Shown here: positions 56,249 through 64,000 of the stretch, piece by piece | Layout: each line of letters begins with the position of its first letter | How positions within the stretch are numbered: position 1 is the first letter of the stretch | DNA from: an uncultured Actinomycetes bacterium | GTDB lineage: Bacteria > Actinomycetota > UBA4738 > JBBDTT01 | Length of the DNA: 64,000 bases | Direction: 5' to 3' | Assembly: GCA_963742735.1 (NCBI GenBank) | Contig: CAVUMN010000004.1 | Location: 32,001 to 96,000, forward strand | The notes under the pieces: generated by a model | Databases searched by the model: none | The model's input: only the letters and a program-made list of their open reading frames with translations | Told to the model about the DNA's origin: nothing | Translations under genes and position numbers: made by a program

Positions 56249-56878
56249 ATGCGCCGCAAGGCATCCCGAGCGTCCCGACGGCTGACCGCCGCGGCGGTCG
56301 TCCTGGCACTGGCCGGCGGGCTGGCGTTTCAGCGCTACGCCGCGGACCTGGAGCGGCGGGCACGCCCGGGTGGGCCCCTCACGGCCGTGATCGTGGCCGC
56401 CCGTGAGCTGCCCCGGGGCCACGCGCTCGAGCCGCGAGACCTCGAGGAATCCACCCTGCCCCGCGACTTCGCCCCTCCGGGGGTGGTGACGTCGGTCGCC
56501 GGAGCGGTCGGCCTGCGGCTGCTCGCGCCGATCGCGGCGGGCGAACCCCTGACGCGATCCCGGCTGGGCCCATCGGGCGGGCCGGTCGCCGCATTCGTCC
56601 CGCCGGGGCTGCGGGCGATCTCCGTCACGACCTCGCTGCCGGCCGGGTCGGTGGCCGTCGACGATCGCGTCGACGTGCTGGCGACGTTCGCGACCGGGGC
56701 GCCGCACACCGAGACGGTCGTCGCCGAGGCGCCGGTGCTGTCGGTCCTTCGGGCCGACGACGCGTACGAGGGCGCGGGTCTCGTGCTGATCCTGCTCGTC
56801 TCGCCCGAGGACGCCGAGCGGCTCGCGTACGCCCGTGCGTTCGCCGACCTGTCGGTGGCGATCGCCCCGGGCGGCTAG
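56249..56878 (+). CDS. cpaB: Flp pilus assembly CpaB/RcpC (SAF domain) protein
   Basis: TM helix; VIVAARELPRG SAF domain; PGLRAISV...DRVDVLAT. Confidence 0.8.
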   Translation: MRRKASRASRRLTAAAVVLALAGGLAFQRYAADLERRARPGGPLTAVIVAARELPRGHALEPRDLEESTLPRDFAPPGVVTSVAGAVGLRLLAPIAAGEPLTRSRLGPSGGPVAAFVPPGLRAISVTTSLPAGSVAVDDRVDVLATFATGAPHTETVVAEAPVLSVLRADDAYEGAGLVLILLVSPEDAERLAYARAFADLSVAIAPGG

Positions 56879-58230
56879 GAGAGGCCGACCCGGAGGATGC
56901 CCGCCACGGCGGCCACCCCGATCACCCACAGGATGTTCAGCTTGAATCGCCACAGGGCGACGAAGCTCGCCACGGCGACGATCGCCGAGAACGGATCGAC
57001 GGAGCCGAGCACGGGGACGGGGATCGCCCCGCCGGCGAACTCGACGTCGCGAACCCGGTCGAACAGCGACCGGATCGCGAAGGTCACGGCGAGATTCGCG
57101 ATCACGCCCACGACCGCCGCGGTGATCGCGGACACGACCCCGTTGAAGGCACGGCTGCCTCGCAAGCGCTCGATGTAGGGAGCTCCCAGGAACACCCAGA
57201 GGAACGACGGCGCGAAGGTTGCCCACGTGGTGACGGTCGCCCCGATCACCCCGGCCAGGAGCGGGTCGAGCCCGCCCGGGTTGCGATACGCGGCCACGAA
57301 GCCGACGAACTCGGTGACCATGATCAGCGGCCCCGGGGTGCTCTCGGCCAGGCCGAGTCCGGTGACCATCTCCGCCTGGGTGAGCCAGCCGAACTGCGCG
57401 ACCGCCGCCTGGTTCAGGTAGGCGAGGACCGCGTACGCCCCGCCGAACGTGACCATCGCCGCCTGCGAGAAGAACACCGCCTCCTGCCCGAGGACGTCCG
57501 GCGCGTCCGGGAACAGCGCGACCGCGGCAAGCGGCAGCATCCATATGGCGAGGCCGGTCAGAAGGACCCGCGCCGTGCGGGCCGGGCCCGAGGCGGTGTG
57601 ACGCGCGTCGACCACGTCGTCGCGGAGGGCGGGCGCAGCCTCGCCGGAGCCCTCCTCGGGGAGGGCGAAGACGTCCGGCCTCGAGCGGCCCCCGATCAAC
57701 CCGATCACCCCGGCGGCCACGACGATGAGCGGGAACGGGGCGTGAACGACGAAGATCGCGACGAACGCCCCGAGAGCCAGCGCGGCGAGGGCCGGATGGC
57801 GCAGGACCCGCCGGCCGATCCGGATGCCGGCCGCGGCGATGATCCCAACCACCGACGCCTGGAGGCCGGCGAACAGCCCGGCCACCACGTCGACGTCGCC
57901 GTGGACGACGAACGTCCAGGACAACCCCATGATCAGGAAGAAGGCCGGCAGGACGAAGCCGATCCCGGCGAGCAGCCCGCCCTTGACCCGATGCAACAGC
58001 CACCCGATGTAGATCGCGAGCTGTTGCGCCTCGGGCCCTGGGAGCAGCATGCAGAAGTTGAGGGCGTGCAGGAACCGCGTCTCGCTGACCCAGCGCCGCC
58101 GTTCGACGAGCTCCTCGTGCATGACGGCGATCTGCCCAGTCGGACCGCCGAAGTTGATGAACCCGAGCTTGATCCAGAAGCGAGCCGCGTCCCGGAACGC
58201 AACGCCGTGATCGGGGGTCGTCTCGGGCAT
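56875..58230 (-). CDS. chrA: Chromate efflux transporter (CHR, long-chain)
   Basis: KLGFINFGG, LPGPEAQQ, TFGGAYA, ESTPGP. Confidence 0.93.
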   Translation of the reverse strand: MPETTPDHGVAFRDAARFWIKLGFINFGGPTGQIAVMHEELVERRRWVSETRFLHALNFCMLLPGPEAQQLAIYIGWLLHRVKGGLLAGIGFVLPAFFLIMGLSWTFVVHGDVDVVAGLFAGLQASVVGIIAAAGIRIGRRVLRHPALAALALGAFVAIFVVHAPFPLIVVAAGVIGLIGGRSRPDVFALPEEGSGEAAPALRDDVVDARHTASGPARTARVLLTGLAIWMLPLAAVALFPDAPDVLGQEAVFFSQAAMVTFGGAYAVLAYLNQAAVAQFGWLTQAEMVTGLGLAESTPGPLIMVTEFVGFVAAYRNPGGLDPLLAGVIGATVTTWATFAPSFLWVFLGAPYIERLRGSRAFNGVVSAITAAVVGVIANLAVTFAIRSLFDRVRDVEFAGGAIPVPVLGSVDPFSAIVAVASFVALWRFKLNILWVIGVAAVAGILRVGLS

Positions 58231-58276
58231 GCGGCGCAGTATGCCCCGATGGACGCGCTGTTAAGGTCCGGTGGCG

Positions 58277-58447
58277 ATGGCCAAGAGCGCGCCCTACCCG
58301 CTGGACGGGGCCACCGAGGAGGAGCGCGAGATCCTCGCGCAGGTGGCCGAGATCCTCAGGAAACTCCAGTTCGGCACGATCGTGCTCGTCGTGCAGGACG
58401 GCAAGGTCGTGCAGATCGAGATGGCGGAGAAGTTCCGGCTTCGTTGA
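58277..58447 (+). CDS. Small DUF2292/YezD/OscA-family protein (56 aa, not in ORF track)
   Basis: MAKSAPYPLDGATEEEREILAQVAEILRKLQFGTIVLVVQDGKVVQIEMAEKFRLR*, with the L.FG.I...VQDGKVVQIE..EK.R signature. Confidence 0.85.
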   Translation: MAKSAPYPLDGATEEEREILAQVAEILRKLQFGTIVLVVQDGKVVQIEMAEKFRLR

Positions 58448-58517
58448 GCGTGGGTTGGTTGACGGCGCCGGGATGAGTCCCCAGGGTTCGCGCCAGCAAG
58501 GCTGACCAGAGAACGGA

Positions 58518-58554
58518 GGCCGCGACACATTCGTGTCGCGGCCGTTTGCTTTTT
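58518..58554 (+). terminator. Intrinsic terminator/attenuator between the DUF2292 gene and crp
   Basis: 11-bp stem GGCCGCGACAC-ATTC-GTGTCGCGGCC followed by GTTTGCTTTTT. Confidence 0.8.
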
Positions 58555-58598
58555 CCGGGAGGGATTCGCAAGGTCCCGGGCGGCGTACGCTTTCGGGG

Positions 58599-59345
58599 AT
58601 GGCCACCGAGAGCGTGCCGAACGAGAACCCGATCACGAAGCTCCGCCGCGAGCAGGAGGTCGACGAGCGCGTCGAGCTGCTCGGGCAGGCGCCGCTGTTC
58701 TCGGTCCTGCGCGGCGAGGACATGCGCGATCTGGCCGACAAGTTCCACGTGGTCCGGTACCGCCGAGGCGAGGTGATCTTCCGCGAGGGCGAGCCGGCCG
58801 AGCGCCTGTTCGTCATCGCCGACGGGCGGGTGAAGCTGACGATCACCTCGCCCGCGGGGCAGGAGCTGATGATCGCGGTCCTGGGGCGGGGGCAGATCTT
58901 CGGCGAGCTCGCGATCGTCGACCGCGGCCTGCGCGAGATGGACGCGCGCGCCATGGAGGACGTCATGCTGTTCTCGCTGGCCAGCGACCAGTTCTGGATG
59001 ATCATCGAGGGCCGGCCCGCGCTCGCGCGGCGGCTGCTGGAGCTGATGGGCCGGCGTCTGCGCCGCGCCGACCAGGCCACGCAGGACCTGGTGTTCTTCG
59101 ACGCCCCGACGCGCCTCGCGCGCAAGCTGCTCGAGCTGGCCGAGGAGCACGGCGAGCCCGCCGACGGCGGCGGCGTGCGCATCGAGAGCCGCGTCACCCA
59201 GGAGGAGATCGCGCAGATGATCGGCGTGTCGCGGGAGAGCGCCAACCGGCTGATCTCCTCGTTCGCCGGCCGCGGCTGGATCGACTGGAACGACGGCAAC
59301 CCCATCGTCCTGAAGCCCGAACAGCTGATGCGCCGCGCCCGCTGA
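58599..59345 (+). CDS. CRP/FNR-family transcriptional regulator (cNMP-binding)
   Basis: IFREGE...LFVI..GRVK, IFGELA, RLARKLLELA, TQEEIAQMIGVSRESANR HTH. Confidence 0.93.
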   Translation: MATESVPNENPITKLRREQEVDERVELLGQAPLFSVLRGEDMRDLADKFHVVRYRRGEVIFREGEPAERLFVIADGRVKLTITSPAGQELMIAVLGRGQIFGELAIVDRGLREMDARAMEDVMLFSLASDQFWMIIEGRPALARRLLELMGRRLRRADQATQDLVFFDAPTRLARKLLELAEEHGEPADGGGVRIESRVTQEEIAQMIGVSRESANRLISSFAGRGWIDWNDGNPIVLKPEQLMRRAR

Positions 59346-59348
59346 CGG

Positions 59349-60584
59349 ATGGAGCGGATCGACGCCGTCGTCGTCGGTGCGGGACAGGCCGGCCTCGTCA
59401 CCAGCTACGAGCTCACGGCGCGGGGCATCGACCATGTGGTCCTGGAGCGAGGCCGGATCGGCGACTCCTGGGCGCGGCGGTGGGACTCGTTCACCCTGGT
59501 TTCGCCGGCGTGGTGGACGAACCTCCCGGGACGACCTCGCGACGAGGAGGGGACCGCAAAGGGTGAGGCCTTCTTGCCTCGCGACGAGATCGTCGCGATG
59601 TTCGAGGACTACGCGAGGGGCTTCGACGCTCCGATCCGGGAGGCCGTCGAGGTCCGGCGCCTGCGTCCCGTGGACGAGGGATTCGTCGTCGAAACCTCCG
59701 AAGGCGACCTCTCGGCCCGCGCCGCTGTCGTCGCCACCGGATCCTTCCGCCGCCCCTTCCGGCCGCCGGGATCCGAGGATCTCCCGGCTGGGCTTCCCCA
59801 GATCGACGCCGACCACTACCGGAACTCCGACGGCCTCCCTGACGGAAAGCTGCTGATCCTCGGCGGCGCCCAGACCGCCTGCCAGATCGCCGAGGACCTC
59901 GTCGCGGCCGGCCGCGAGGTAGTCGTTGCCACCGGGCGCGTCTTCTCGGGGCCGCGGCGTATCGGCGACCACGACCTGTTTTGGTGGATCGTGGAGACCG
60001 GATTCGCCGAGCAGCCTGTCGAGGCACTGGACTCACCCCTGGCCCGCCTGTTCGCGAATCCGATCGCCACCGGAAGAGACGGCGGGCACGACCTCAGCCT
60101 GTTCACGCTGCGCGAGGCGGGCGTTGAGATCCTGGGCCGGTTCGTCGGCGCGGACGGCTCGGCTGCGGCCTTCGCCGACGACGTCCCGGCGAGCCTCGCG
60201 TCGGGTGAGGAGTTCCTCATGAAGTTCCGCGGCATGATCGAGCGGACGGCGAATGAGAAGGGCATTCCACAGCCCGATCTGCCCCCTCCGGCGGTGTGGA
60301 CCACTCCGACCCGCACATCCCTGGACCTCACCGGGTTCGGAGCGGTCGTGCACGCCTCGGGGTTCCGGCCCGACTACGGGTCCTGGATCGAGGTCGCCGG
60401 CGGGTTCGACGAGCATGGCTTCCCCGTGCAGCGCGACGGGGCAAGCCTCGCCGCCGACGGTCTGTACTTCGTCGGCACGCACTTCCTTCGCAAGCGCAAG
60501 TCGTCGCTGCTGTGGGGCGTCGGAGAGGACGCCGCGATCGTGGCCGGCGCCCTCGCCACTCGGCTCGGCGCCGCCGCGCGGTAG
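59349..60584 (+). CDS. Flavin-dependent oxidoreductase/monooxygenase
   Basis: GAGQAG, RWDSFTLVSP.W, VATG, QIAEDL, S.LLWGVGEDA. Confidence 0.88.
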   Translation: MERIDAVVVGAGQAGLVTSYELTARGIDHVVLERGRIGDSWARRWDSFTLVSPAWWTNLPGRPRDEEGTAKGEAFLPRDEIVAMFEDYARGFDAPIREAVEVRRLRPVDEGFVVETSEGDLSARAAVVATGSFRRPFRPPGSEDLPAGLPQIDADHYRNSDGLPDGKLLILGGAQTACQIAEDLVAAGREVVVATGRVFSGPRRIGDHDLFWWIVETGFAEQPVEALDSPLARLFANPIATGRDGGHDLSLFTLREAGVEILGRFVGADGSAAAFADDVPASLASGEEFLMKFRGMIERTANEKGIPQPDLPPPAVWTTPTRTSLDLTGFGAVVHASGFRPDYGSWIEVAGGFDEHGFPVQRDGASLAADGLYFVGTHFLRKRKSSLLWGVGEDAAIVAGALATRLGAAAR

Positions 60585-60585
60585 G

Positions 60586-61371
60586 TCAAACCGCGGGTGC
60601 GCGAAGCAGGAACGAGATGACCCCTCCCTTGCCCTTCAATGCAACGCTCCCCCGCGGCTCGAGCTGGAATCCGTCGCCGAGGGCCTGCGCGACGACGTCC
60701 GACACGTGGATGCCGTTCGGCTCACTGGAGGACTCCAGCCGGCTCGCGACATTCACCGTGTCGCCCCAGACGTCGTAGACGAACTTGCGGGTCCCGATCA
60801 CGCCGGCCACCGCGGGACCCGAGTGGATGCCGATGCGGATTCGCCAGTCTCGGCCCGTGGACTCGTTCAGCCGTCCGACGGCCTCCACCATCCCCAGGGC
60901 CAGCTCGGCGATCGCCGTCACGTGATCCTCCCGGGTTCCGGGGAGCCCCGCCACCGCGAGGTACGCGTCGCCGATCGTCTTGATCTTCTCGACCTCGAAC
61001 CGCTCGCACAGCGAATCGAACTCGGAGAACAGCCGGTTGAGCTCTGTGACCAGCTCGTGGGGCTCGAGGTCCGAGGACAGCGCGGTGAATCCCACAAGGT
61101 CGCTGAACAACACCGTCACGGAGTCGAACCGGTCGGCGATGGTCTCCTCGCCCGCGCCGAGTCGGTCGATGATCGGCTGGGGCAGGATGTTGAGCAGCAG
61201 CGAGTGCGAGCGGGCCCGCTCCTCATCGAGCTCCTTCATCACACTCGACAGCAGCTTGGAGGTGGAGTCCTGCATCTCCTCCATCTGGCGCACGTTGGCG
61301 TCCAGCCGCGCGAGCCTTCGCGCGAGCGCGCGGTTCTCCTTCTGCAGGTCCTCGAGGGAGGGCTCGTCCAT
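60586..61371 (-). CDS. Class III adenylate cyclase with N-terminal coiled coil
   Basis: LLLNILP signalling helix, LFSDLVGFT, EKIKTIGDAY, YDVWGDTVNVASRLES. Confidence 0.92.
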   Translation of the reverse strand: MDEPSLEDLQKENRALARRLARLDANVRQMEEMQDSTSKLLSSVMKELDEERARSHSLLLNILPQPIIDRLGAGEETIADRFDSVTVLFSDLVGFTALSSDLEPHELVTELNRLFSEFDSLCERFEVEKIKTIGDAYLAVAGLPGTREDHVTAIAELALGMVEAVGRLNESTGRDWRIRIGIHSGPAVAGVIGTRKFVYDVWGDTVNVASRLESSSEPNGIHVSDVVAQALGDGFQLEPRGSVALKGKGGVISFLLRAPAV

Positions 61372-61382
61372 GCCGGCGGCCG

Positions 61383-62549
61383 CTACTCCGACCCGAGCAG
61401 CACCGCGACCATGGTCTCGTTGTGGAAGCGGGTGGGCGCCCCCGCATCGAGCGGCGCGATCTCCCCGAGGCAGTACGCGCCGGCGATCGGAAGGTCCCCG
61501 AACTCCGTCCGCGCGATCTCGAGCTCGCGGCCGGCGCGCGTGCCCAGCACCGCCTTTCGCACGGCGCACGCGAACAGCAGCGCGGCCCCGGGCGTGGACC
61601 CCTCCGGGAACGCCTTGATCGCTCGCCGGAACGCCGAATGCGTACCGTCGAAGATCGCCTCCGTCGCCGCCACGGCGAGCTGCACTCGCGCTCCCTCCTG
61701 CAGACCGCCGGGCACGCGCAGAACGCCGAGTGGGAGGTCCTCCGACAGGAGCGCGACGCGCAGGAAGAACCCCTCCCCGTCGCCCTCGTGCACCGCCAGG
61801 GGGGTCGCGGAGGAGGGCACGCCGCCCGCCCCCAGATAGCGCTCGTAGAAGGCGAGGGCGGATTCGCCGTCGATCTCGGACACGGTGTCGTGCGCCGACA
61901 TCGTGACCACACCGATCTTCCCCACCGGCTGCCAGCCGGCGTCCACGCCGAACGAGTGCACGAGCGGCCCCGAGAACAGCAGCACGGGGACGGCGTCCTC
62001 GAGTACCCGGCCGTTGAAGAACTCCTTGGCGCCGATGGCGGCGGGCGGTCCGAGCGTCCCCGAGATGGCCCCTCCGCCGATGATGCTCACCTCGTCGCCG
62101 AGCTCCGTCCGGAGGGCTTCCAGGATCTGCGGTGGCAACCCCGCGACCGAGGGTGTCGTGATGCACAGGACGGGCTCGAGGGCCGACCCCGAACGCGCCT
62201 CTTGGACCGCCGCACGAACGGCCGCCTCATGGTCCTGGCTCACGTTCGTCCCGAGGCCGGCACGGATGTCCACCGAGTCCGTCACGAAGAGCGCCAGGGC
62301 CACCGAGTCCTCCAGGTAGCCCATGCCCGAGGACATCTCGCCCATCGTCGAGGAGCCGATGAGCTGGATCCCGGGATAGGCGGTCGCCACGGCGGCGACG
62401 ACGATCTCCGGATCGGTTTCGTACGCGCAGAACAGGAGACCGGCCGACGGTGTTGCGCCGCCGAGGTCGACTTCGCACTGCGCGAGCACCGAGGCGGCGG
62501 CCTCTCCGGCGTCGACCTCGTTGCTGTGCCCGACCACCATCCGGAACAT
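61383..62549 (-). CDS. FIST N/C domain protein (NosP-like sensor)
   Basis: LIGSSTMGE, IIGGGA, GWQPVG, SEIDG..A, FACAVRK, GAYCLGEIAP, FHNET. Confidence 0.9.
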   Translation of the reverse strand: MFRMVVGHSNEVDAGEAAASVLAQCEVDLGGATPSAGLLFCAYETDPEIVVAAVATAYPGIQLIGSSTMGEMSSGMGYLEDSVALALFVTDSVDIRAGLGTNVSQDHEAAVRAAVQEARSGSALEPVLCITTPSVAGLPPQILEALRTELGDEVSIIGGGAISGTLGPPAAIGAKEFFNGRVLEDAVPVLLFSGPLVHSFGVDAGWQPVGKIGVVTMSAHDTVSEIDGESALAFYERYLGAGGVPSSATPLAVHEGDGEGFFLRVALLSEDLPLGVLRVPGGLQEGARVQLAVAATEAIFDGTHSAFRRAIKAFPEGSTPGAALLFACAVRKAVLGTRAGRELEIARTEFGDLPIAGAYCLGEIAPLDAGAPTRFHNETMVAVLLGSE

Positions 62550-62573
62550 TGCCCCGAGCCTACCGCGGCTCCA

Positions 62574-62589
62574 TGTGCGGTAGGTCACA
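62574..62589. promoter_or_regulatory. CRP-type binding site
   Basis: TGTGC-GGTAGG-TCACA, 9/10 match to TGTGA-N6-TCACA, in the divergent intergenic region between the FIST and halogenase genes. Confidence 0.7.
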
Positions 62590-62725
62590 CCCCCAGAGTG
62601 CGGACGTTCACGGGGCGTTCGTGAGCGTGACCGGGCGGCGGGCCGCGCTCGTCGCGATACCCTTCTGCCCGATCCGGTGGTCCTCGCCTCGGGCCACCAC
62701 GTCCGCCCTCACGACAGGAGCCTCG

Positions 62726-64000
62726 ATGACCGACGAGACCACCGAACCCCAGCTCGACGCCGACGTGATCGTGATCGGCGGCGGCCCCGCCGGCGCCACC
62801 ATCTCCGGCTACCTGGGCCGCGCCGGCTACAAGGTGATCACGCTCGAGCGCGACATCCACCCGCGCGAGCACGTCGGCGAGTCGCTGGTCCCGGCCACGA
62901 ACATCGTCACCCACGACCTGGGCTTCTGGCCGAAGATGGAGCAGATGGGCTGGGTCGTGAAGCCCGGTGCCTCCTGGACCGGATTCAAGGGCGGCGTCGG
63001 CTCGGAGTTCGTCGTGACGTTCGCCGAGGTCCCGCAGGACATCCCGAACCCCGACTACACGTACCACGTCGACCGCGCCGTCTTCGACGCGATGTTCCTG
63101 AAGCACGCCCAGGAGCTCGGCGCGAACGTGGTCGAGGGGGCGTACGTGAACAAGGTGCTGTTCGAGGGGGACCGTGCGGTCGGCGTTCTGGCCACCGTCG
63201 CCGGCAAGAAGATCGAGCTGCGCTCCAAGTTCGTGGTCGACGCGAGTGGCCGCCGCACGGTCATCGGCAAGCAGCTGAACCTGCGCGAGAAGGACCCGCA
63301 GTTCAACCAGTTCGCCATCTACTCCTGGTTCAAGGGCGTGAAGGCTCCGACGGAGAAGACGAAGGACTACATCCACGTGCACTTCCTGCCCATCGAGCGC
63401 GGCTGGGTGTGGCACATCCCGATCTACGAGGACGCGACGAGTGTCGGCGTGGTCGTGGAGAAGAAGGAGTTCCAGAAGTCCGGCAAGACCCACGAGGAGT
63501 TCTTCAACGAGGTCGTGCAGCTCTCGAAGAACACCGTCCACGCCCTGGAGGGCGCCGAGCGGATCAGGCCGTTCTGGATCGAGGCCGACTACTCCTACAA
63601 GATCGAGAAGTTCACCGGGCCCGGCTGGATGCTCGTCGGCGACGCGGCGCGGTTCGTCGACCCGATCTTCTCCTCCGGCGTTTCGGTGGCCATGCGCTCG
63701 AGCCAGTTCGCGTTCGCCGCGATCGAGGCCGTTCTGAAGGGCGAGCGGACCGAGGACGACGCCCTCGGCGAGTACGACGAGACGATCCAGCGCGGAACCC
63801 AGATCTGGTACGAGTGGATCACGCTGTACTACAAGATGCAGTCGCTGTTCACGCGGTTCTCCGCGAAGAAGGAATACAAGAAGGACATCCAGCAGCTGCT
63901 CCAGGGCGAGGTCTTCGACAAGGGCGCGATCAAGGTCATCGACCGGATGAAGGCCGCCGTCAAGGCGATCGAGGAGACCGAGGGTCACCTGATGCAGCAG
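62726..64000 (+). CDS. Flavin-dependent halogenase (runs off window edge)
   Basis: Not in the ORF track. AGGAG RBS, ATG at 62726; GGGPAG, PREHVGES, VVKPGA (catalytic Lys position), WVWHIP, GDAARFVDPIFSSGV. Confidence 0.85.
   Translation, partial: MTDETTEPQLDADVIVIGGGPAGATISGYLGRAGYKVITLERDIHPREHVGESLVPATNIVTHDLGFWPKMEQMGWVVKPGASWTGFKGGVGSEFVVTFAEVPQDIPNPDYTYHVDRAVFDAMFLKHAQELGANVVEGAYVNKVLFEGDRAVGVLATVAGKKIELRSKFVVDASGRRTVIGKQLNLREKDPQFNQFAIYSWFKGVKAPTEKTKDYIHVHFLPIERGWVWHIPIYEDATSVGVVVEKKEFQKSGKTHEEFFNEVVQLSKNTVHALEGAERIRPFWIEADYSYKIEKFTGPGWMLVGDAARFVDPIFSSGVSVAMRSSQFAFAAIEAVLKGERTEDDALGEYDETIQRGTQIWYEWITLYYKMQSLFTRFSAKKEYKKDIQQLLQGEVFDKGAIKVIDRMKAAVKAIEETEGHLMQQ

Follow-up and report, generated by a model that had tools for sequence, protein, structure and literature searches.

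A hairpin linked to the small protein DUF2292 as a candidate on-switch of sulfur and phage genes, with a putative relic copy in front of a crp gene

Introduction

In the antiterminators of the BglG/SacY/LicT type, a protein dimer stabilises a small imperfect hairpin (RAT) that partly overlaps a terminator, which turns expression on (available part of PMC12591593). ANTAR proteins (EutV, NasR, AmiR) are also dimers, which act on short hairpins located before terminators in many phyla (available part of PMC3369931). The pan motif is a simple stem with a conserved unpaired A on both sides, is often found in tandem and in several phyla, and its proposed binder is a dimeric protein (available part of PMC2864571).

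We analysed a locus that shares features with all three. The window (the whole 64,000-nt stretch of DNA analysed here) carries a gene for a 56-aa DUF2292 protein, followed by a hairpin, a terminator and a crp gene. As in the BglG/SacY system, the putative antiterminator hairpin overlaps the 5′ arm of the terminator (58518–58521 in the window), and a bound dimer may stabilise it. Unlike that system, the protein is a stand-alone one of a 50–60 aa kind, without a CAT or PRD domain in the window copy (PF10055 being its only match), the hairpin is different and has no Rfam RAT match, and the genes concerned are sulfur and phage genes instead of sugar operons, with apparent action on translation too. 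Some DUF2292-linked hairpins occur in tandem, as in ANTAR systems. ANTAR, however, depends on a pair of hairpins whose loops have six bases (A1, G4), whereas the hairpins described here are mostly single with variable 4–5 nt loops, conservation lies in the stems and a GA/A internal loop, the protein is modelled as a helix plus a beta-hairpin, and the ANTAR domain PF03861 is absent from the window protein. The pan motif differs in that it precedes pantothenate genes; we found no Rfam pan match in the window or at 12 canonical loci, and no link to DUF2292 is described in the available part of PMC2864571. The DUF2292 switch, thus compared, probably resembles a protein-stabilised antiterminator of the BglG/RAT kind extended to translation, and falls outside every described family tested.

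OscA, and YezD of Bacillus subtilis, belong to the same Pfam family as the window protein. In Pseudomonas corrugata, oscA is co-transcribed with the gene of a sulfate-binding protein, is induced by chromate and is required for chromate resistance; the available parts of the two reports (PMC2996968, PMC3596284) give neither a molecular function nor an RNA element for OscA. The gene yezD is listed among sulfur genes (available part of PMC3862929). In Bacillus methanolicus, 'PyrR' sites have been placed behind SAM riboswitches and also behind T-boxes (available part of PMC4342826), and we weighed these as a possible earlier sighting of the hairpin. Our literature search, which is provisional as subscription journals lie mostly outside its coverage, returned no account of the hairpin or of the molecular function of DUF2292, and a term search of the supplements of PMC6429828 found no mention of the motif. 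Since the available text of a 2025 review of RNA-binding antiterminators (PMC12591593) contains neither 'sulfur' nor 'cysteine', a sulfur-specific antiterminator family would be new.

Results

The locus in the window

The upstream neighbour of the DUF2292 gene, in divergent orientation, is chrA, which encodes a chromate efflux transporter (56875–58230, minus strand; TIGR00937, 225.8 bits against a cut-off of 171.7; PF02417) and is possibly a member of a former sulfur-starvation cluster at the locus. A second link to chrA was seen in a Ca. Kuenenia record (L193/L312) with the order DUF2292, chrA, motif, porin gene; outside the window the DUF2292–chrA adjacency was found in one genome among 208 loci tested. 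The gene of 56 codons that the sequence-only reading had picked out is indeed DUF2292/YezD/OscA-like (ORF 58277–58447, plus strand; PF10055, 55.7 bits against a Pfam cut-off of 22). A possible -10 box, TAAGGT (58262–58267, plus strand), lies 9 nt 5′ of its ATG, and comparable boxes were found by eye 6–8 nt 5′ of the start in the DUF2292 genes of relatives; judging from these letters, the window gene may be leaderless or almost so. A -10-like box can be seen by eye before chrA too, 7 nt 5′ of its ATG (58231–58245, minus strand), and three genes at the locus, chrA included, appear leaderless.

As that reading had stated, 151 nt separate the stop codon of the ORF from the ATG of crp (58599), and they contain the motif at 58501–58520 and a strong terminator with its 5′ arm starting within the motif. 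A leader promoter-like site (58459–58487, plus strand) combines a -35 element TTGACG (58459), a 17-nt spacer and a -10 element CAGGGT (58482). The hairpin (58500–58521, plus strand) has a lower stem in which 58500–58503 pair with 58518–58521, a GA/A internal loop, and an upper stem that is down to two C–G pairs. The intrinsic terminator (58518–58554, plus strand) has an 11-bp stem (58518–58543), the first four bases of which double as the 3′ strand of the lower stem of the motif, and a U-rich tail (the scan called 2 sites against 0.5 expected); at −23.0 kcal/mol it is close to the median of 44 copies, −23.7 kcal/mol. Behind it lie crp, encoding a CRP/FNR family regulator (58599–59345, plus strand; PF00027, PF13545), and, starting 3 nt after crp, a gene for a flavin-dependent oxidoreductase (59349–60584, plus strand; TIGR04046, 279 bits, below the cut-off of 498; PF13738). 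The rest of the window (60586–64000) holds an adenylate-cyclase-like ORF (by eye), a FIST-domain gene and a flavin halogenase-like gene, the company that crp orthologs keep.

The host genome (G000), assigned to Actinomycetota by the names of homologs, measures 3.08 Mb and is 88.9% complete. In a public DNA run, a contig of 217 nt matches 58430–58646 with zero differences, so an assembly slip is an unlikely cause of the odd motif copy, the run being possibly the source sample. A consensus promoter scan of 57500–59500 returned no site, its rule being too strict for boxes such as those above.

The same reading had also seen a structured leader, GGCG...CGCC enclosing GGGA-TGAG-TCCC. The letters are there (58464–58494); as a conserved RNA feature, however, we rejected it, given that it sits in the promoter spacer, its counterpart is not conserved, and it would fall mostly outside the leader transcript. 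The spacers of the promoter-like sites have no fold in common, and the whole 166-nt region does not fold better than its shuffles (z −1.34).

A conserved hairpin with compensatory changes

Copies of the motif were collected with a regular expression that admits all nine combinations of inner-stem halves. It gave 91 distinct matches, and the inner stems are complementary in 86 of them (GG/CC in 52, AG/CT in 29, GT/AC in 5). The computed structure, based on 75 aligned copies (alignment A3; 16 of the 91 matches were left out as chance or near-duplicate), has two stems, a lower one with at most 6 bp and an upper one with 4 bp, separated by an internal loop in which GA faces A; the upper stem ends in a loop of 4–5 nt. 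The consensus is YY-GA-CCRG-loop-CYGG-A-RR, with compensatory changes. In this alignment 91.2% of cells are paired, against 24–46% in slid controls, two-sided changes occur in 7 of 10 pairs, and the covariation score was reached by none of 500 shuffles, which is not to be read as a probability because the sequences are related. A C–G pair that is invariant in Actinomycetota is replaced in other phyla by U–A in 4 and by U–G in 3 of the 58 copies with fully paired upper stems.

Rfam 15 gave no match over the window motif up to E 5, nor over the motif at 12 canonical loci up to E 1; the same tool recovered SAM riboswitches in neighbouring leaders. We noted tandem copies at three loci (L089:3214–3320, L050:1684–1774 and L113:482–568), and at L089 a terminator-class copy is immediately followed by a copy of the translation class described below.

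Two expression platforms

A terminator-like hairpin begins within the last GG of the motif in 44 of 86 copies, two of which (L071 minus strand, L131) probably belong to the second class below, compared with a mean of 6.8 and a maximum of 12 after shuffling; for this and the energy analyses five of the 91 matches had been dropped as chance or near-duplicate. The overlap, which the sequence-only reading had proposed as a check, is thus well above the shuffled level. Offset controls of 10–30 nt gave overlap in 1–8 of the 86 copies, and an offset of −6 gave 31 because the same hairpin is caught. Since the lower stem overlaps the terminator base, the two forms are mutually exclusive; the terminator form is favoured by a median of 6.6 kcal/mol, and protein binding could make up this difference. 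A further pairing suggested for the window, AACGG with CCGTT at the terminator base, is possible there, but we rejected it as a conserved antiterminator: it is seen in 1 of the 44 copies, the window's own.

A Shine-Dalgarno sequence lies within 100 nt in 37 of the other 42 copies. In 29 of these 37 it can pair with the 5′ flank of the motif, and this pairing beats that of shuffles by 2 kcal/mol or more. In this second class, the same strand serves either to close the motif or to cover the ribosome-binding site. The closed motif would be the ON state in both classes. In Pseudomonadota the motif has no terminator behind it. Of the 44 terminator-class copies, 36 have a promoter-like site 8–24 nt 5′ of the motif; none of 154 shifted controls has one.

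The hairpin accompanies DUF2292

Among 60 relatives, 25 carry DUF2292 and all 25 have a match to the motif model (E < 0.001), 15 of them having supplied sequences to that model and ten none. A strong match was found in 1 of the 35 negative relatives (G041, 68% complete) and weak ones in four more; absence of DUF2292 here means absence in a single-protein search, confirmed by the family model for 13 genomes. Two unpublished genomes are counted in these tallies, G006 among the positives and G030 among the negatives with a weak match. Of 80 metagenome loci around close DUF2292 homologs, 51 have the strict motif, as do 15 of 29 loci from relatives at the order level; no locus of either set has the reversed pattern. 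The distance from a strong copy to a DUF2292 gene is at most 1 kb in 15 of 55 cases, up to 10 kb in 21 and more than that in 1; a further 17 copies are on other contigs and 1 is in a genome without DUF2292. With 36 of the 55 within 10 kb, shared clusters explain part of the co-occurrence, which partly reflects shared ancestry as well.

We then considered other phyla. In a sample of 251 Bacillota genomes (the phylum of a Rummeliibacillus record), DUF2292 is present in 38. A canonical match, meaning a Watson–Crick upper stem and a 4–5 nt loop beginning with A (a filter derived from the actinobacterial set, counted by eye), was found in 18 of these 38 against 1 of 213 negative genomes; unfiltered matches number 23 of 38 against 41 of 213. 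The strict pattern is missing in 20 of the 38 positive genomes, and some Bacillota without a pattern match carry variants that it misses (L319, L320). A canonical hairpin with a terminator also occurs in a Bacillota genome (G428) without a PF10055 match, at L344:1500–1522; the ORF downstream of it has no NCBIfam match.

A pattern scan of a species collection gave at least 120 loci, with a DUF2292 gene in 16 among those listed. A terminator is present in 29 of the 121 matches listed, and 82 of the 121 have neither terminator nor DUF2292 and are mostly chance. The listed records bear names which we take to be those of members of Bacillota, Desulfobacterota, Planctomycetota, Pseudomonadota, Gemmatimonadota, Chloroflexota, Verrucomicrobiota and Actinomycetota. 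The claim of the sequence-only reading that motifs of this kind are found after DUF2292 genes in other phyla as well was borne out.

In Pseudomonadota, the motif was found in 7 of 9 new DUF2292 loci, one of the others having a looser variant and one (L366) none. Where oscA precedes the sulfate-binding protein gene sbp, the hairpin lies mostly between the two genes; it is lacking in 1 of 6 such loci of Pseudomonadota (L366). These oscA–sbp loci (L359–L361, L363, L365, L366) also have a conserved AT-rich stretch 5′ of the promoter region, which is possibly, at a guess, where a sulfur regulator of the LysR type binds the DNA.

Sulfur genes and phage genes behind the hairpin

The 27 downstream ORFs of the relatives (one G006 protein included) comprise 16 sulfate-type binding proteins, 2 SsuA-like proteins and 1 TauE, with 8 giving no match. 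Across phyla, where five doubtful terminator calls were excluded, 19 of 35 downstream ORFs have a Pfam match. These are cysteine synthases (CysK), CysH, a Cys/Met PLP enzyme, SsuA-like and NlpA lipoproteins, SrpI encapsulin, porins, TonB receptors and, twice, DUF2292 itself; Sat, CysD and CobA are likewise found among downstream genes, and one RNase E/G is probably a chance match. At three Bacillota loci (L319, L320, L323; about 1235–1700) a SAM-I riboswitch lies 5′ of the DUF2292 gene. The order there is SAM-I riboswitch, DUF2292, hairpin with terminator, which makes two stacked RNA controls, and at L319 cysH is the next gene after the hairpin and terminator.

The DNA pattern also found loci in viral contigs, where a protein-centred scan with the actinobacterial alignment had found nothing. 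Of 69 viral loci, 29 have a terminator, and a DUF2292-like match is present at 16 of these 29 versus 1 of the 40 without; 9 of 11 phage DUF2292-like ORFs tested score above the Pfam cut-off. The phage ORFs downstream (20 tested out of 30) include three terminase small subunits, one portal, one major head and one head-tail adaptor protein, together with five transcription regulators, three members of one unknown family and six without a match. At five phage loci (L371, L372, L417, L423, L433) DUF2292, hairpin and terminator stand before a phrog_36 transcription regulator, and L423 has two DUF2292 copies upstream.

The DUF2292 protein is predicted to form a homodimer

The window protein is intact, it has relatives that are 80–84% identical to it, and it keeps all of the conserved residues G33, G42, V44, E48, K52 and R54. 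With 38.9 bits against a cut-off of 85, it is below the threshold of the OscA equivalog NF033785, and its gene is followed by crp rather than by the sulfate-binding protein gene of the OscA context. Its predicted fold is a helix (14–29) followed by a beta-hairpin (33–51), at pLDDT 85.

When modelled in two copies, the protein gave a homodimer scoring 0.56, against 0.01 for the best of three controls (pLDDT 80; contact agreement between runs at least 97%). In calibration, 20 of 30 solved pairs passed the mark, as did 1 of 23 single chains. In the predicted interface the first strands are antiparallel and the helices pack together. K52 and R54, which are not listed at the interface, and the open face of the sheet would in this model be candidate RNA contacts. 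Natural tandem fusions of about 110–125 aa are confidently folded in prediction. Such two-domain proteins, of 95–131 aa in alignment A4 (P0170, P0177, P0187, P0218 and others), have a conserved C-terminal G-x-x-G-[DE]-G-I tail.

Neither a PDB sequence search nor Foldseek found solved relatives, and the ESM Atlas gave no usable match. VIA-align returned no clear match either, the best Z being 3.3 with the monomer model and 4.7 with the tandem model; the structure searches establish neither likeness to a known fold nor a new fold.

The window copy and the control of crp

The window motif lacks one base of the common form that shares its loop (L067, L070, L071), and is otherwise identical to it. 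No other hairpin of the 44 is as weak (−8.4 kcal/mol, the median being −13.9), and the motif model R1 gives the window copy 25.5 bits, compared with 33–51 for strong copies. The first base of the leader -10 element is T in 30 of 31 copies and C in the window alone. In 27 of the 44 copies a start codon lies within 3–16 nt of a Shine-Dalgarno sequence behind the terminator; the window has the Shine-Dalgarno-like GGGAGG (58557–58562, plus strand) and no start, and these letters are probably left from a gene that once stood behind the terminator. In the host genome (G000, 88.9% complete) we found neither of the usual targets (PF13531, PF13379). Nor was a second strong copy of the motif found genome-wide (150 of 5190 candidates scored) or near cysH, cysK and metC homologs.

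The crp orthologs of five relatives are 55–86% identical; none has DUF2292 nearby or the motif (best 15.2 bits), and those of two relatives adjoin halogenase-like genes. In the congener G001, crp is found between FIST and halogenase homologs, with chrA on another contig, and no DUF2292 gene, motif or terminator was found upstream of it in this 61% complete genome. The 7 nt that precede it are the same as in the window, and TAGGCT lies 6 nt before an in-frame GTG. The window counterpart is a -10-like box, TACGCT (58586–58591, plus strand), 7 nt 5′ of the crp ATG. As the box is shared with G001, a leaderless promoter of its own is the most likely arrangement for crp, and we read these letters as probably such a promoter; its -35 is poor. 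A crp gene beside DUF2292 was found at 0 of 80 metagenome loci and 0 of 208 further loci, and among L002–L055 at none except the window's own duplicate.

The sequence-only reading had taken the motif and terminator to gate a crp operon, unless crp had a promoter of its own after the terminator. A -10-like box was found at that place, conserved in the congener that is without the leader, and crp homologs are absent from all 80 metagenome DUF2292 loci. The wider proposal, an antitermination system in which DUF2292 or a partner binds the motif, is well supported by comparison (covariation, overlap with the terminator, co-occurrence in genomes, copies in phages), with binding as its putative step; the gating of crp is not. 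The window copy probably does not gate crp, and looks like a weakened, displaced leftover of a switch, which may provide a secondary sulfur-dependent input into crp.

An active switch, recruited to put crp and the oxidoreductase under sulfur control with or without a crp promoter, is in our view unlikely. It would account for the survival of the promoter-like site, of all invariant bases and the 4-bp lower stem of the motif, and of the terminator, for a terminator–antiterminator gap of 5.3 kcal/mol, which is within the normal range (median 6.6), and for the intact DUF2292 protein, and the adjacent chrA can belong to sulfur-starvation clusters. However, the pairing of crp with DUF2292 recurs nowhere else in the loci surveyed, the motif is missing from all five crp orthologs, the window copy has several independent signs of decay, and crp is preceded by its own conserved -10-like box.

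Discussion

The small protein and the hairpin are probably a real and undescribed system. Building on the computed structure, terminator overlap, co-occurrence, gene context and dimer model, we marginally favour an on-switch that works through a DUF2292 dimer and the hairpin, the window copy being a relic and crp being transcribed mainly from its own promoter; the binding, its direction and the sensing are the putative steps. The promoter would fire about 7–10 nt 5′ of the hairpin, the candidate RNA binding site. When the factor is absent, the strong terminator, about 6–7 kcal/mol more stable, would form or, in the second class, the helix that hides the ribosome-binding site. A DUF2292/YezD/OscA dimer would bind the GA/A internal loop and the flanking stems and keep the lower stem shut, so that the base of the terminator beside the U tract would be lost or, in the second class, the Shine-Dalgarno sequence would be freed. 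The switch would serve sulfur-starvation genes in bacteria and late genes in phages. What conveys the signal is probably the abundance of DUF2292 protein, which may be set by a SAM riboswitch 5′ of its gene in some Bacillota; in some Actinomycetota the motif before the DUF2292 gene itself would give positive feedback. The window, on the same reading, would hold the DUF2292–promoter–hairpin–terminator head of a sulfate/sulfonate transporter operon, the genes of which are gone, and a rearrangement would have placed crp behind the orphaned leader.

The hairpin could instead be a switch for a small sulfur metabolite or for another protein, with DUF2292 as a co-regulated passenger, which we consider quite unlikely. 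Its strong link to sulfur genes, the frequent position of DUF2292 inside the regulated clusters, and the motif in genomes without a DUF2292 match (Bacillota G428 and the relative G041, 68% complete) would fit, and very small terminator-embedded aptamers do exist, the HMP-PP riboswitch reportedly being one. However, the neighbouring genes vary between phyla while the motif–DUF2292 pair stays, and phages retain motif, terminator and DUF2292 before head and packaging genes that have no link to sulfur. The retention of the pair in phages without sulfur genes favours a protein–RNA partnership over a metabolite riboswitch. Furthermore, 22 nt with a single internal loop is very small for a metabolite pocket.

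It is improbable that DUF2292 loads on the hairpin to modify RNA polymerase, as lambda N does at nut, or that it blocks Rho or a nuclease. Such action would suit the phage late-gene context and the motif without a terminator in Pseudomonadota and some other phyla. It is at odds with the start of the terminator, which is fixed inside the motif and rarely recovered at offsets of 10–30 nt, and with the second class, in which the motif competes with an anti-Shine-Dalgarno helix; both classes fit direct structural competition. Classical attenuation, in which the small ORF would be a leader peptide and a stalled ribosome would control the terminator, is hardly credible: ORF, hairpin and terminator do stand in series here and in many Bacillota, but a promoter-like site lies between the stop codon and the motif, the DUF2292 gene is often 3′ of the motif, on the opposite strand or kilobases off, and its protein is a conserved folded domain.

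Returning to the on-switch of dimer and hairpin, its broadest form is one on which we are evenly divided: that DUF2292/YezD/OscA proteins are minimal RNA-binding activators, shared across phyla and with a fold unmatched in the PDB, the dimers of which, through one 22-nt hairpin, exert a so far unrecognised master control of sulfur starvation at the post-transcriptional level in at least seven phyla, and which phages have taken over for their late genes. The window copy itself is of lesser weight, and is best used as a natural weak allele. What the family as a whole gains is a testable function for a widespread small protein and for an RNA element missing from Rfam. If the proposal is true, a 56-aa protein and a 22-nt site would make a very compact tool for gene control, a plug-in switch serving both termination and translation, and a phage protein could cross-activate the sulfur genes of its host.
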